Assembly: GCF_024700885.2 (NCBI RefSeq)
Contig: NZ_CP117016.1
Source of the DNA: Escherichia coli
GTDB lineage: Bacteria > Pseudomonadota > Gammaproteobacteria > Enterobacterales > Enterobacteriaceae
Reading direction: 5' to 3' (one strand)
DNA length: 64,000 nucleotides
In this document: positions 1,574 through 51,835 of the stretch, in pieces
How the letters are laid out: every line of letters begins with the position of its first letter
How positions within the stretch are numbered: the stretch's first letter is position 1
Program-made: the position numbers and the translations under genes
Notes under the pieces: model-generated
The model's input: the letters and a program-made list of their open reading frames with translations, nothing else
Databases searched by the model: none
Told to the model about the DNA's origin: nothing

Positions 1574-3286
1574 TTAATCCCACAAATCGCGCGCCGGATC
1601 GAGCACCGGGCGAATGATGCCCGCACGCACCGTAAAGTCGCCGAAGCCTTCACCCGCTTCGCGCTCTTTCGCCCAGCGCCCTATCAGTTCATCAAGCGAC
1701 GCCAGGATTTCCGGCTCGGTGATGTTTTCTTTATACATCCGTGGGATACGTGTCCCAATGCGGTTGCCGCCAAGATGCAGGTTGTAGCGACCCGGCGCTT
1801 TCCCCACCAGACCCACTTCCGCCAGCATCGCGCGACCACAACCGTTCGGGCAGCCTGTTACACGCATCACGATATGCTCATCGCTGACACCATGTTTCGC
1901 CATTAAATTATCGATGTTGTCGATAAAAGACGGCAGGAAACGCTCCGCTTCCGCCATCGCCAGCGGGCAAGTCGGGAATGACACGCAGGCCATTGAGTTT
2001 TCACGTTGCGGCGTGACGGCATTCATTAACCCGCTTTCTTTGGCGATCTTATCGATCTTCGCTTTCTCGCTTTCCGGCACTCCGGCGATGATCAGATTCT
2101 GGTTCGCCGTAATGCGGAAATCACCTTTGTGGATCTTCGCGATCTCCAGCAGGCCGGTTTTCAGCGGACGCCCAGGATAATCAAGGATACGACCATTTTC
2201 GATAAACAGCGTCAGATGCCAGTTATCATCAATGCCCTTAACCCAGCCAATACGATCGCCGCGTCCGGTGAACTCATACGGGCGGATCGGTTCAAATTTG
2301 ATCCCCGCGCGACGTTCAACTTCCGCTTTAAACGTCTCAACCCCTACGCGCTCCAGCGTGTATTTGGTTTTGGCATTTTTACGATCGGTTCGGTTACCCC
2401 AGTCGCGCTGAGTCGTCACGACGGCTTCTGCCACCGCCAGCGTATGCTCCAGCGGCAGATAACCAAACTCACTCGCCGTGCGGGCATAGGTTTTCTTGTT
2501 GCCGTGCTCGATGGAAAGCCCACCGCCCACCAGCAGGTTAAAGCCCACCAGCTTGCCGTTTTCGGCGATCGCCACGAAGTTCATGTCGTTGGCGTGCAGA
2601 TCGATATCGTTCTGCGGCGGGATCACTACCGTGGTTTTGAACTTACGCGGCAGGTAGGTCTGACCAAGGATCGGCTCTTCATCAGTAGTGGCGACTTTTT
2701 CCTGATCGAGCCAGATCTCCGCATACGCGCGGGTACGTGGCAGCAGATGTTCAGAGATTTTCTTCGCCCATTCATATGCTTCCGCGTGCAACTGCGACTC
2801 GTAAGGGTTCGAAGTGCACAGCACGTTACGGTTCATATCGTTGGCGGTCGCCAGCGCATCAAGACCGACCGAGTGCAGCATCTGGTGCACCGGTTTGACG
2901 TTCTTTTTCAGAATGCCGTGGAACTGGAACGTCTGGCGGTTGGTCAGGCGAATGCTGCCATAGATGGTGTTTTCACCGGCAAATTTATCGATCGCCTGCC
3001 ACTGTTTGGTGGTAATCACCCCACCCGGCAGACGACAGCGCAACAGCATTGCATGACGTGGCTCCAGCTTCTGTTCAGCACGTTCGGCGCGGATGTCGCG
3101 GTCATCCTGCTGATACATGCCGTGGAAGCGGATCAGCAGGAAGTTATCGCCCTTAAAGCCGCCGGTCAGACCGTCGTTTAAATCTTCCGCAATGGTGCCG
3201 CGCAGGTAGTTGCTTTCAAGCTTCATGCGCTCGGCGTCTGTCAGTTTTCCTTCGACCACTAAAGGCCCTGGATGTTTTTCGCTCAT
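1574..3286 (-). CDS. cysI: sulfite reductase hemoprotein (beta) subunit
   Basis: 570-aa [25 protein letters not shown]...; siroheme/4Fe-4S Cys motifs near the C-terminus ([25 protein letters not shown]). Confidence 0.95.
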
Positions 3287-5085
3287 TAGTAGACATCTCG
3301 CTGATAACGGCGCTCTACGCGCAGCTCACTTAAAAATTCATCCGCCGCTTCGGTGTCCATGCCACCAAATTCGGCAATCACTTCCAGAAGTGCCTGCTCA
3401 ACGTCTTTCGCCATGCGATTAGCGTCGCCGCAGACATAAATGTGGGCACCGTCATTGATCCAGCGCCACAGCTCCGCGCCCTGTTCGCGCAGTTTGTCTT
3501 GTACATAAACTTTTTCTTTTTGGTCGCGCGACCAGGCAAGATCGATGCGGCTCAATACGCCTTCTTTCACGTAGCGCTGCCACTCCACCTGGTAGAGGAA
3601 ATCTTCCGTAAAGTGCGGGTTGCCAAAGAACAGCCAGTTTTTACCTGGCGCTTCGTCAGCGGCGCGTTGCTGCATAAAGGCGCGGAACGGCGCGATGCCG
3701 GTGCCTGGGCCAATCATAATCACCGGGGTTTCCGGGTTGGCTGGCAGGCGGAAGTTATCGTTATGTTCGATAAAGACGCGGACTTCGCCCTCTTCTTCCA
3801 CGCGATCCGCGAGGAAGCTGGAGGCACCACCGGCACGGGCTCGGCCTTCCACGTCGTAACGCACCACACCAACGGTGACATGTACTTCGTTCTCGACTTC
3901 CGCCTGCGAGGAGGCGATGGAATACAGGCGCGGGGTCAGCGGGCGCAGCAGGTTAATCAGCGCTTCGGCATCCAGTTGCGCCGGAGAGAAACGCACCATG
4001 TCAACAATCGGCGTGGTCGCGGCGTAATGCTGTAACTTCGCTTTATCGCCCACCAGCGGCAGCAGCGTTTCGCTGCGGGTAAGCGTGGCGTAGTTCTCAA
4101 CAATATTCGCGGTGTTGACGGTGAGTTCAAAGTGCCACTGGAGCGCTTCGCTCAGGGTCAGCGTTTTGCCCTCAACGGTGACAGGTTCATCGCCTTTCAG
4201 CCACAGCAGTTCGACAAGTTCTTTCACCAGTGCCGGATCGTTCTGATACCAGATGCCCAGCGCGTCACCCGGCTGATAACGCAGGCCAGAGTCACCTAAG
4301 TCAATTTCGATATGGCGAACGTCTTTTTCAGAGTTACGCCCGGTAATTTTCTGGTTAACCGAAAGGCTCGCCACCAGCGGCGCGTCTTTGCTGTACGGGC
4401 TGGTGTGGATTTCATTTACCGCGCCAGTAGCGACGGATTGCGAAGGTGCCGCGACAGGCGCACGGGACTTCAGAACATCAACCACGCGGGCGCGCCACTC
4501 GCTGGCAGCAGCCTGGTATTCAACGTCGGCATCGACACGGTCGAGCAGGCGTTCACCGCCCAGTTCCGCCAGCTTGCTGTCAAAATCTTTCCCGGACTGG
4601 CAGAAAAATTCATAAGAGCTATCGCCGAGGCTAAACACGGCAAATGCAGTGTTTTCCAGCTTTGGCGCTTTTTTGGAGAACAGGAACTTATGCAGCGCGA
4701 CGGCTTCTTCCGGCGGTTCCCCTTCCCCTTGCGTTGACGTCACCACGATGAGCAGTTTTTCGCTGGCGATTTGTTTGAATTTATAGTCGCCCGCGTTCAC
4801 CAGCTTAACGTTCAGTTTTGCCGCTAATAAATCATCGCGTAATGCTTCAGCAACCCGGCGCGCATTGCCGGTTTGCGAAGCGGAGATAATAGTTATACCC
4901 GGCATTTCTGCGGCGGGCGCAGGCGTCGCTGCAAGCGCTGCAGGCTGCTGGTTGAGTACGCCCCAGAAATAGCCAGAAACCCAGGCAAGCTGGGTGGGAG
5001 TTAAATCGGTCGTGGCCGCCTGAAGGCGTGCCAGTTGCTCCGGGTTCAACGGAAGCAACGCGGAAGGTGGGACCTGTGTCGTCAT
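3286..5085 (-). CDS. cysJ: sulfite reductase flavoprotein (alpha) subunit
   Basis: 599-aa [25 protein letters not shown]...; flavodoxin-like plus FAD/NADPH reductase domains; stop overlaps cysI start. Confidence 0.95.
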
Positions 5086-7993: not shown

Positions 7994-8100
7994 GTAGGCT
8001 GCACGCCACATCCGACATTCAGCGCCTGATGCGACGCTTGACGCGTCTTATCAGGCCTACAAGTCCCCAGCCCAGAACCGTAGGCAGGATCATCCGGCAA
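7994..8100. repeat. REP/BIME cluster between convergent ygcP and ygcQ
   Basis: Contains GCCTGATGCGACGCTTGACGCGTCTTATCAGGCCTAC (8024-8059) plus flanking REP-like GTAGGC palindromes. Confidence 0.7.
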
Positions 8101-8104
8101 CACG

Positions 8105-30351: not shown

Positions 30352-30392
30352 GTTTATTCCGGATGCGGCGTTAACGCCTTATCCGGCCTACA
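30352..30392. repeat. REP element downstream of barA
   Basis: CCGGATGCGGCGTTAACGCCTTATCCGGCCTAC palindrome. Confidence 0.65.
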
Positions 30393-30476
30393 AAACCAAT
30401 TAAATTCAATGAATTAAAAAGTATGTTGGCCTGATACGTAGCGCAACAGGCAATTTTGCGTTTGGCATCAGTCTCA

Positions 30477-48051: not shown

Positions 48052-49827
48052 ATGAAAAAAATCAGCTTACCGAAAATTGGTATCCGCCCGGTTATTGACG
48101 GTCGTCGCATGGGTGTTCGTGAGTCGCTTGAAGAACAAACAATGAATATGGCGAAAGCCACGGCTGCACTGCTGACCGAGAAACTGCGCCATGCCTGCGG
48201 AGCTGCCGTCGAGTGTGTCATTTCCGATACCTGTATCGCGGGTATGGCTGAAGCCGCTGCTTGCGAAGAAAAATTCAGCAGTCAGAATGTAGGCCTCACC
48301 ATTACGGTAACGCCTTGCTGGTGCTATGGCAGTGAAACCATCGACATGGATCCAACCCGCCCGAAAGCCATTTGGGGCTTTAACGGCACTGAACGCCCCG
48401 GCGCTGTTTACCTGGCTGCGGCTCTGGCAGCTCACAGCCAGAAAGGCATCCCGGCATTCTCCATTTACGGTCATGACGTTCAGGATGCCGATGACACATC
48501 GATTCCTGCTGATGTTGAAGAAAAACTGCTGCGCTTTGCCCGTGCCGGTTTGGCCGTCGCCAGCATGAAAGGTAAAAGCTATCTGTCGCTGGGCGGCGTT
48601 TCGATGGGTATCGCCGGTTCCATTGTTGATCACAACTTCTTTGAATCCTGGCTGGGAATGAAAGTCCAGGCGGTGGATATGACCGAACTGCGTCGCCGTA
48701 TCGATCAGAAGATTTACGACGAAGCCGAACTGGAAATGGCGCTGGCCTGGGCTGATAAAAACTTCCGCTATGGCGAAGATGAAAATAACAAACAGTATCA
48801 ACGCAATGCCGAGCAAAGCCGCGCAGTTCTGCGCGAAAGTTTACTGATGGCGATGTGTATCCGCGACATGATGCAAGGCAACAGCAAACTGGCCGATATT
48901 GGTCGCGTGGAAGAATCACTTGGCTACAACGCCATCGCTGCGGGCTTCCAGGGACAACGCCACTGGACCGATCAATATCCCAATGGTGACACCGCCGAAG
49001 CGATCCTCAACAGTTCATTTGACTGGAATGGCGTGCGCGAACCCTTTGTCGTGGCGACCGAAAACGACAGTCTTAACGGCGTGGCAATGCTAATGGGTCA
49101 CCAACTCACCGGCACCGCGCAGGTATTTGCCGATGTGCGTACCTACTGGTCACCAGAAGCAATTGAGCGTGTAACGGGGCATAAACTGGACGGACTGGCA
49201 GAACACGGCATCATCCATTTGATCAACTCCGGTTCTGCTGCGCTGGACGGTTCCTGTAAACAACGCGACAGCGAAGGTAACCCGACGATGAAGCCACACT
49301 GGGAAATCTCTCAGCAAGAGGCTGACGCTTGCCTCGCCGCTACCGAATGGTGCCCGGCGATCCACGAATACTTCCGTGGCGGCGGTTACTCTTCCCGCTT
49401 CCTTACCGAAGGCGGCGTCCCGTTCACCATGACCCGTGTCAACATCATCAAAGGCCTGGGCCCGGTACTGCAAATCGCGGAAGGCTGGAGCGTTGAGTTA
49501 CCGAAGGATGTGCATGACATCCTCAACAAACGCACCAACTCAACCTGGCCAACCACCTGGTTTGCACCGCGCCTCACCGGTAAAGGGCCGTTTACGGATG
49601 TGTATTCGGTAATGGCGAACTGGGGCGCTAACCACGGGGTTCTGACCATCGGCCACGTTGGCGCAGACTTTATCACTCTCGCCTCCATGCTGCGTATCCC
49701 GGTATGTATGCACAACGTTGAAGAGACCAAAGTATATCGTCCTTCTGCCTGGGCCGCGCACGGCATGGATATTGAAGGCCAGGATTACCGCGCTTGCCAG
49801 AACTACGGCCCGTTGTACAAGCGTTAA
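48052..49827 (+). CDS. fucI: L-fucose isomerase
   Basis: 591-aa [39 protein letters not shown]... Confidence 0.97.
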
Positions 49828-49935
49828 TATATTACTCCCTGATGTGATGCCCGGTCGCTCCGGCTACCGGGCCTGAACAAGCAAGAGTGGTTAGCCGGAT
49901 AAACAATGTTATCCGGCTATATTGCAGGAGCGATT

Positions 49936-51354
49936 ATGAAACAAGAAGTTATCCTGGTACTCGACTGTGGCGCGACCAATGTCAGGGCCATCGCGGTTAA
50001 TCGGCAGGGAAAAATTGTTGCCCGCGCCTCAACGCCTAATGCCAGCGATATCGCGATGGAAAACAACACCTGGCACCAGTGGTCTTTAGACGCCATTTTG
50101 CAACGCTTTGCTGATTGCTGTCGGCAAATCAATAGTGAACTGACTGATTGCCACATCCGCGGTATCGCCGTCACCACCTTTGGTGTGGATGGCGCTCTGG
50201 TAGATAAGCAAGGCAATCTGCTCTATCCGATCATTAGCTGGAAATGTCCGCGAACAGCAGCGGTAATGGACAATATTGAACGGTTGATCTCCGCACAGCA
50301 GTTGCAGGCTATTTCTGGAGTCGGAGCCTTTAGTTTCAATACGTTATATAAGTTGGTGTGGTTGAAAGAAAATCATCCACAACTGCTGGAACGCGCGCAC
50401 GCCTGGCTCTTTATTTCGTCGCTGATTAACCACCGTTTAACCGGCGAATTCACTACTGATATCACGATGGCCGGAACCAGCCAGATGCTGGATATCCAGC
50501 AACGCGATTTCAGTCCGCAAATTTTACAAGCCACCGGTATTCCACGCCGACTCTTCCCTCGTCTGGTGGAAGCGGGTGAACAGATTGGTACGCTACAGAA
50601 CAGCGCCGCAGGAATGCTCGGCTTACCCGTTGGCATACCGGTGATTTCCGCAGGTCACGATACCCAGTTCGCCCTTTTTGGCGCTGGTGCCGACCAAAAT
50701 GAACCCGTGCTCTCTTCCGGTACATGGGAAATTTTAATGGTCCGTAGCACCCAGGTTGATACTTCGCTGTTAAGTCAGTACGCCGGTTCGACCTGCGAAC
50801 TGGATAGTCAGGCAGGGTTGTATAACCCAGGTATGCAATGGCTGGCATCCGGCGTGCTGGAATGGGTGAGAAAACTGTTCTGGACGGCTGAAACTCCCTG
50901 GCAAATGTTGATTGAAGAGGCTCGTCTGATCGCGCCTGGCGCGGATGGCGTGAAAATGCAGTGTGATTTATTGTCGTGTCAGAACGCTGGCTGGCAAGGA
51001 GTGACGCTTAATACCACGCGGGGGCATTTCTATCGCGCGGCGCTGGAAGGGTTAACTGCGCAATTACAGCACAATCTACAGATGCTGGAAAAAATCGGGC
51101 ACTTTAAAGCCTCTGAATTATTGTTAGTCGGTGGAGGAAGTCGCAACACATTGTGGAATCAGATTAAAGCCAATATGCTTGATATTCCGGTAAAAGTTCT
51201 CGACGACGCCGAAACGACCGTCGCAGGAGCTGCGATGTTCGGTTGGTATGGCGTAGGGGAATTTAACAGCCCGGAGGAAGCTCGCGCGCAGATTCATTAT
51301 CAGTACCGTTATTTCTACCCGCAAACTGAACCTGAATTTATAGAGGAAGTGTGA
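49936..51354 (+). CDS. fucK: L-fuculokinase
   Basis: ORF 49906..51354 trimmed to ATG at 49936 (472 aa, [32 protein letters not shown]...); the 482-aa form from 49906 cannot be excluded. Confidence 0.9.
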
Positions 51355-51778: not shown

Positions 51779-51835
51779 TCTCATACCGGTACGCCCGCAC
51801 GACGCGGGCGGTTATCGAATGATGGGGTGAAAAAT

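Follow-up and report, generated by a model that had tools for sequence, protein, structure and literature searches.

The fucI-fucK spacer of Escherichia coli holds two stable stem-loops within the fucPIKUR operon, which raises the question of what these hairpins are and whether they act on fucK translation, on the stability of the operon mRNA, or not at all. We addressed this in a stretch of 64 kb of E. coli DNA, hereafter the window, in which fucI (L-fucose isomerase; 48052..49827, + strand) is the upstream cistron, taken from the open reading frame list and carrying this name in the annotation of K-12 and of further E. coli records, and fucK (L-fuculokinase, 472 aa; 49936..51354, + strand) is the downstream cistron with the start codon ATG at 49936 as in RefSeq. 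The spacer from the fucI stop (49827) to the fucK ATG (49936) measures 108 nt, and was found in 5422 of 5426 complete E. coli genomes at a coverage of at least 80%. The gene context and the fucPIKUR operon are as described in the original prediction.

The first hairpin, HP1 (49849..49872, + strand, 24 nt), consists of a GC-rich outer stem of 7 bp with the arms GCCCGGT (49849-55) and ACCGGGC (49866-72), a 1x1 mismatch and an inner stem of 2 bp. It is followed by an A-rich linker of 19 nt (CTGAACAAGCAAGAGTGGT; 49873..49891, + strand), unpaired or weakly paired in the folds, and by the second hairpin, HP2 (49892..49919, + strand; core 49894-49917), in which the arms GCCGGATAA (49894-902) and TTATCCGGC (49909-17) enclose the loop ACAATG and two further pairs (TA/TA) extend the helix to a perfect 11-bp stem with a 6-nt loop. 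The 3' feet of the hairpins lie at about 49873 for HP1 (K-12 2937405) and about 49920 for HP2 (K-12 2937452). HP1 folds at -18.2 kcal/mol (z -3.2) and HP2 at -16.7 kcal/mol (z -5.8). For the spacer as a whole the folding energy is -45.5 kcal/mol (z -4.45), a stability reached by 0 of 200 shuffled sequences, and either inverted-repeat pattern is found a single time in the window, where 0.00-0.01 would be expected. In a context of 216 nt the stems are paired with probabilities of 0.93-1.0, except for the two terminal pairs of HP2 (0.83 and 0.74). Two stem-loops far more stable than chance were therefore confirmed at the predicted places, as was the distance of 18 nt between the end of the HP2 core (49917) and the fucK ATG. 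An outer helix in the minimum free energy structure (49831-49837 / 49885-49891) was rejected, as two of three natural substitutions in it break pairs. A weak 5-bp helix with the Shine-Dalgarno sequence in its loop (49921-49925 / 49930-49934, AUUGC/GCGAU, -2.6 kcal/mol) lacks conservation beyond Escherichia and is probably of no importance. A promoter scan of the E. coli fucI-fucK spacer called none, and an Rfam 15 scan at a permissive threshold returned only two matches at chance level (E 1.7 and 6.2), neither of which lay on the hairpins.

The origin of the hairpins became apparent from the orthologous spacers, which we extracted from the fucK neighbourhoods of 43 Enterobacteriaceae species. 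The spacers of Klebsiella, Citrobacter, Salmonella and some Raoultella carry a canonical inverted REP pair (BIME), for example GCCCGGTGGCGCAAGCTTACCGGGCCTAC - linker - GTAGGCCGGATAAGCGCAGCGCCATCCGGC, and in some Citrobacter the first REP unit is replaced by the z2-type GCCTGATGGCGACGCTGACGCGTCTTATCAGGCCTAC. In a MAFFT alignment of 31 orthologous spacers, HP1 fell on GCCCGGTGGCGCAAGCTTACCGGGCCTAC and HP2 on GTAGGCCGGATAAGCGCAGCGCCATCCGGC, arm for arm, with HP2 aligned to GTAGGCCGGATAAG..CCATCCGGC of the other genera and the 19-nt linker to the BIME linker, and the 3' boundary was constant in almost all genera (ATCCGGC-N7-8-GGAG-ATG). Moreover, an nhmmer profile built from 25 non-Escherichia spacers only matched the E. 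coli fuc spacer colinearly over model positions 2-75 (49848-49918; 14.7 bits, E 1.2e-3), a score of marginal significance that is reinforced by the orthologous position. The same profile matched the canonical REP and BIME elements of the window, which serve as internal positive controls: a y unit with a degenerate partner and a long AT-rich linker at 30357-30453 (E 5e-6), a z2 unit with a truncated partner at 8022-8103 (E 2e-4), and a single z2 REP at about 1520-1583. The alignment and the colinear profile match together indicate that HP1 and HP2 are the two halves of a BIME, arranged as iREP - 19-nt linker - REP in colinearity with the canonical pairs of the 25 orthologous spacers, and extragenic as expected of such elements, between the tandem genes fucI and fucK. 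On this comparative basis HP1 is a decayed iREP half of the z1-like 'GCCCGGT..ACCGGGCCTAC' class and HP2 a decayed y-type REP half, and the hairpins are a degenerate BIME, that is, a decayed member of a well-known kind of repeat and not a private fuc signal, an identity that the original prediction had overlooked. The K-12 RefSeq record annotates no REP at the spacer, yet it carries no repeat features whatever across 50 kb that hold canonical REPs, and its silence is therefore uninformative. Among the papers searched, none combines fucI, fucK and REP.

The decay is evident from the features by which E. coli REPs are recognised. These are described as imperfect palindromes of 30-40 nt with a GTAG 5' of the foot, in which GTAG and a two-base stem mismatch are both needed for binding and cleavage by TnpA_REP, and in which a GC-to-TT change that makes the palindrome perfect abolishes TnpA_REP activity (Ton-Hoang et al., PMC3333891). 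HP2 has GTTA in place of the 5' GTAG tag, where the orthologues of other genera have GTAG/CTAC in the alignment, it has lost the inner GC stem, and the ancestral AA/CC stem mismatch is now AA/TT, i.e., two A-T pairs, which by sequence is the same kind of change as that in the TnpA_REP-inactivating mutant. HP1 has CTGAAC in place of the CTAC tag and retains the 1x1 mismatch. Neither hairpin thus carries the tag or reaches the length of a 30-40-nt imperfect palindrome (24 nt for HP1; 24-28 nt, and perfect, for HP2), and binding of TnpA_REP to them is predicted to be lost. Nor are they repetitive: each hairpin was found by blastn at a median of one place per E. coli genome, and an intact z1-like query at a median of two, for example in the BIME between pheP and ybdG. 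Given the loss of the tags and of the HP2 mismatch, the E. coli hairpins are probably immobile, single-copy fossils; still, judged from the alignment, the hairpins themselves are kept, and the stem of HP2 is even tightened, despite the lost mobility signals.

Two insertion sequences have nevertheless found the hairpins. IS1397 is stated to insert specifically into REP/PU targets in a passage of PMC1525189 that cites Clément 1999 and Wilde 2001/2003. In strain BH100 (NZ_CP025251; locus L054, 304-1735), a 1432-bp IS1397 is inserted in HP2 at 49908-49911 with a 4-bp duplication of GTTA, presumably separating fucK from the operon promoter. The four other IS1397 copies that were sampled, from four other genomes, all interrupt the loop of a canonical y or z REP, with duplications of 3-4 bp, at 13-18 nt from the stem foot, and the distance is similar in HP2. 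That IS1397 entered HP2 despite the lost GTAG tag suggests that it recognises the palindrome foot and hairpin rather than the tag. As only one such insertion was seen, and BH100 carries at least 40 copies of IS1397, it is supportive, not decisive, for the REP identity. In strain 13KWH46 (NZ_CP019250; locus L050, about 2170-3525), an IS3-family element with the ends TAGACTGGCCCC...GGGGCAAATCCA, unrelated to the IS1397 copy by blastn, occupies the HP1 loop with a 5-bp duplication of CTCCG (window 49858-49862); from its ends we take this element to be IS2. A further variant was seen in the metagenome contig OBCN01000910.1 (locus L065, 4121-4237), the spacer of which measures 117 nt, with 26 nt (GATAGAGCAGATTGCCTTGCTTATCT) in place of the 17 nt that form the 5' arm and loop of HP2. 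Its breakpoint lies exactly at the GTTA used by IS1397 in BH100; a rearrangement, a template switch at the palindrome or faulty assembly could each have produced this variant.

Retention of the stems was examined in 13 distinct Escherichia alleles, comprising E. coli lineages, E. albertii, two cryptic-clade genomes and metagenome contigs. Every stem cell is paired (259/259). The 11 pairs of HP2 are invariant and three of its six loop positions vary, while HP1 shows three one-sided stem changes (49866 A>G in O157:H7, 49872 C>T and 49868 C>T), all of which give G.U pairs on the + strand and A.C mismatches on the other strand. Over the 13 alleles, variable sites make up 3/40 of the stem positions, 5/12 of loops and bulges and 11/56 elsewhere, a contrast between stems and the rest that is weak (Fisher p about 0.02-0.05, for the first eight sequences and a handful of sites). 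No two-sided, compensatory covariation was found among the 13 alleles, because divergence within Escherichia is too low. These substitution patterns agree with, but do not prove, a constraint that acts on the hairpins as RNA of the sense strand.

Conservation in other fuc operons, named in the original prediction as a check, was examined in the 43 orthologous fucI-fucK spacers, all of which fold into a stable hairpin (43/43), with differing sequence families. In the REP-free spacers of Raoultella terrigena, Enterobacter spp., Kluyvera, Symbiopectobacterium and Kosakonia, a single GC hairpin followed by a T-run on the + strand lies 7-10 nt past the fucI stop and about 22 nt before the fucK ATG, and a terminator scan called three of the three such hairpins that were tested, on the + strand. 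Loci of this hairpin-plus-T-run kind (L024, L025, L040, L043, L018, L023, L017 and L028; about 2453-2480) have spacers of 51-86 nt. In two Citrobacter genomes (L011, 2318-2500; L044, 2383-2500), the spacer contains a longer element with the ends CCCTAAATAATTCGAGTTGCAGGA ... TGAAATATGACGGGTAT, which match the ERIC/IRU consensus, so that we take it to be ERIC/IRU-like and a third kind of palindromic repeat at this site. Single units occur as well: E. whittamii retains the HP1 homologue (first unit) only and C. sedlakii the HP2 homologue (second unit) only. Since every spacer has a hairpin, the position is always filled, and no fewer than three sequence families, unrelated to each other, supply the hairpin. 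Gain or loss of a U-tract has been suggested to turn protective stem-loops into intrinsic terminators and back (Dar & Sorek 2018, PMC6061677), and the turnover across genera at the fucI-fucK site, as read from the spacer sequences, fits this suggestion. Reduced translation of the upstream gene is reported for REPs less than 16 nt from its stop (PMC12306157). With its start 21 nt past the fucI stop, HP1 is outside this range; many other genera have their first REP at 4-14 nt from the stop. Two records call for caution on their labels. A 382-bp contig filed under Agrococcus sp. (L046) encodes a FucK fragment 98% identical to that of E. coli, and is therefore likely a contamination, and a locus filed as Serratia marcescens (L009) has a Citrobacter/Klebsiella-type fuc spacer with a FucK that is 85% identical, and may be mislabelled.

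Having identified the hairpins as a decayed BIME, we considered what they may do. The original prediction proposed that they modulate fucK translation or mRNA stability, and the first of these ideas was not supported by the position of the Shine-Dalgarno sequence AGGAG (49926..49930, + strand). HP2 ends 8 nt before the Shine-Dalgarno sequence in the core numbering used above, and both this sequence and the ATG are outside the hairpin. The modelled cost of opening 49922-49950 is 5.6 kcal/mol for the native spacer, 6.5 kcal/mol with HP2 deleted and 7.8 kcal/mol with both hairpins deleted, and it is thus no higher in the presence of HP2; in the ensemble model it amounts to 8.7-11.2 kcal/mol when one HP2 arm is freed. 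With the Shine-Dalgarno sequence outside HP2 and these opening costs, HP2 is predicted not to occlude the fucK ribosome-binding site, and if anything it would insulate the site by keeping its own arms from pairing with it. The short distance to the start codon, which could suggest a translational operator that abuts the ribosome-binding site and lowers or tunes initiation, or a platform for an sRNA or protein, is by alignment inherited from the ancestral REP position and common to genera with different REP sequences, with GGAG at the same spacing in nearly all of them. In favour of an sRNA platform, overexpression of Spot 42 is reported to lower fucI and fucK mRNA, and region III of Spot 42 (CGUAAUCG) is complementary over 8 bp, with one G.U, to CGAUUAUG (window 49931-49938), which spans the fucK start codon. 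The duplex (-11.4 kcal/mol) is, however, not above background, since 28% of random windows pair as well, and it does not involve the hairpin; region-wise Spot 42 duplexes were no better than background even for the reported fucI target, and the method is without power here. Overall, an operator role of HP2 in fucK translation appears improbable. Within the Spot 42 match, O157:H7 carries the substitution T49935C. An in-frame upstream ATG in the HP2 loop (49906..49908; open reading frame 49906..51354, 482 aa) was also considered as the fucK start and rejected, as it is not conserved (ATA in E. albertii, in a region unconserved in other genera) and the RefSeq start is 49936.

The second idea fared better. 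In RNA-seq data of K-12 MG1655 grown on fucose (RPKM, three replicates; PMC6410053 Table S2), values were 9957/10783/12930 for fucP, 10507/13627/13529 for fucI, 3281/4645/4920 for fucK, 3257/4884/4769 for fucU and 246/281/340 for fucR. Hence fucP and fucI are about equal at roughly 12,000 RPKM and fucK and fucU about equal at roughly 4,300 RPKM, with fucI/fucK ratios of 3.2, 2.9 and 2.75 in the respective replicates, and an approximately 3-fold step falls exactly at the fucI-fucK spacer. The spacer of K-12 MG1655 differs from that of the window at two positions, both unpaired. In the same data set, a drop of about 15-fold from fucU to fucR coincides with a GC-rich 7-bp hairpin without a U-tract in the fucU-fucR spacer (51792-51810; CGCCCGC-ACGAC-GCGGGCG), where the fold of the stretch as a whole is no better than that of shuffled sequences (z -1.2).

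REP elements are known for such effects. REP325 (yjdMN) acts both as a partial Rho-dependent terminator and as a stabiliser of upstream mRNA, tandem gene pairs that contain REPs show upstream-biased expression, and the effects depend on context, with weaker expression bias for less canonical REPs (bioRxiv 2026.03.23.713779). In addition, stem-loops without a U-tract define the 3' ends of Rho-dependent transcripts that resist PNPase and RNase II (Dar & Sorek 2018, PMC6061677). The idea of an effect on mRNA stability thus fits the REP derivation of the hairpins, with the known upstream stabilisation and partial termination, and the 3-fold drop at the spacer. By analogy, HP1 and HP2 are most likely a REP-type 3' barrier and/or a partial attenuator for the fucPIKUR mRNA. 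The transcribed BIME remnant would fold as two independent hairpins within this mRNA, which would block the 3'->5' exonucleases PNPase and RNase II and may also promote partial termination, probably with the help of Rho, with the result that the fucP-fucI segment would accumulate about 3-fold above fucK-fucU. The identity as a decayed BIME, the conserved hairpins and the 3-fold step in K-12 are shown by the data, and from these we infer that the hairpins may cause the step, with decay barrier and attenuation as the candidate routes; the expression data are correlative, and a 3-fold step could also arise within fucK, from less efficient translation or from sites for RNase E or Rho. The Term-seq tables of Adams 2021 list 3' ends in fucP and fucR and none in the spacer, for cultures in which the fuc operon was uninduced. 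Taken as a whole, the reading of a decayed BIME with retained hairpins that leaves the upstream fucP-fucI mRNA about 3-fold above fucK-fucU is, in our opinion, reasonably probable.

This reading has to be weighed against others that start from the same hairpins. The spacer might be a neutral fossil, i.e., a decaying BIME without a role that persists because too little time has passed, with another cause for the 3-fold step. REPs are repeats of a selfish or semi-selfish nature, the family signatures are missing from the E. coli copies, overall divergence of the Escherichia spacer is low (98% mean column identity), and the lack of two-sided covariation and the single units left in E. whittamii and C. 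sedlakii point the same way. Against this, the substitutions avoid the stems, the three that fall in stems keep pairing on the mRNA strand only, and HP2, once its inner stem had gone, turned the AA/CC mismatch into two A-T pairs. In genera without REPs the site is taken by unrelated hairpins, and the mRNA step coincides with the spacer. We therefore hold a neutral fossil to be possible, if rather doubtful. The strand on which the stem substitutions pair also bears on a role at the DNA level such as has been proposed for canonical BIMEs, namely binding of gyrase, IHF or DNA polymerase I, or service as a TnpA_REP substrate: the substitutions pair only as G.U in the + strand RNA and leave A.C mismatches on the other strand. 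Canonical BIMEs are indeed reported to bind these proteins (PMC3333891, PMC1525189), and two IS elements have used the hairpins as targets; in E. coli, however, the features that define protein recognition (GTAG tag, stem mismatch and inner stem) have been lost, and the linker is short, unlike the IHF-bearing L linker of BIME-1 (PMC3333891), so that a DNA-level role is very improbable.

The hairpins might also be intrinsic, Rho-independent terminators inside the operon, and a hairpin with a T-run is called in the same spacer of Raoultella, Enterobacter, Kluyvera and Symbiopectobacterium. In E. coli, HP2 is followed by TATATT. Against a terminator, there are only 4 T in the 7 nt after HP2, and HP1 is followed by CTGAACAAG; the tails after the two hairpins (CUGAACAAG and UAUAUUGCA) thus contain no U-rich tract, and a terminator scan of 49500-50300 called none. 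As fucK and fucU are moreover still at about one third of the fucI level, intrinsic termination at the E. coli hairpins is hardly credible.

A more far-reaching proposal than the decayed BIME with retained hairpins is that the element has been domesticated. Mobility features would have been lost while selection kept both hairpins, with a re-tightened HP2 stem, as a bipartite intercistronic module in which HP1 caps the 3' end of the fucPI mRNA and HP2 is the protective 5' stem-loop of a fucKUR fragment cut in the A-rich linker, the two together setting the 3:1 stoichiometry. We put this forward tentatively and consider it rather unlikely in this full form. If domestication were true, other genera would have filled the same site with devices that can replace one another (canonical BIME, intrinsic terminator, ERIC-like element), a case of natural turnover between terminators and REPs, and a corollary would be that IS1397 recognises the palindrome foot, not the GTAG tag. 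The low level of fucK and fucU mRNA relative to fucP and fucI on fucose has been held responsible for the overflow of fuculose from engineered strains (PMC6410053). Across the Enterobacteriaceae, the fucI-fucK site offers a compact natural series of canonical BIME, decayed BIME, single REP, terminator-like hairpin and ERIC-like element, which could be used to compare how such devices set expression ratios within an operon. An unannotated structured spacer of a textbook operon is in this way explained in ordinary terms, as a degenerate REP pair with an ordinary and well-known type of role. Nothing here would surprise a specialist, and only two points are mildly unusual, the retention of hairpins after loss of the mobility signals and the exchange of one hairpin device for another, between genera, at a single place in the operon.

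Among known systems, the BIME (y, z1 and z2 REPs of E. coli in the nomenclature of Gilson, Bachellier and Ton-Hoang) is the closest relative. The fuc hairpins share with it two GC-rich inverted palindromes with a short linker between tandem genes, they sit at the orthologous position of genuine BIMEs in sister genera, they keep the foot sequences GCCGGATAAG...ATCCGGC and GCCCGGT...ACCGGGCC, and HP2 has received one IS1397 insertion, in BH100. They differ from a REPIN, a REP doublet that forms one long hairpin, as the E. coli halves fold separately in both the minimum free energy structure and the ensemble, whereas several orthologues (L012, L020, L021 and L039) do fold as a single hairpin of 24-31 bp.

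The intercistronic REPs of malE-malF and hisJ-hisQ act as stabilisers or attenuators of mRNA. Like these and REP325, the fuc hairpins lie just past a highly expressed cistron and are accompanied by upstream-biased mRNA at about 3:1; unlike REP325 with its twelve hairpins, the fuc element has two, derives from a degenerate REP, and has a putative role. The terminator-like hairpins of Raoultella, Enterobacter, Kluyvera and Symbiopectobacterium occupy the same position and strand as those of E. coli and presumably do the same job, but are single hairpins of unrelated sequence followed by a T-run. Finally, the fuc hairpins resemble the 3' stem-loops without a U-tract of PMC6061677 in being stable, with energies like those of terminator stems and no U-tract after them, and differ from them in lying inside an operon and not at its end; the switching between such stem-loops and hairpins with a U-tract that PMC6061677 predicts is seen across genera at the fuc site.
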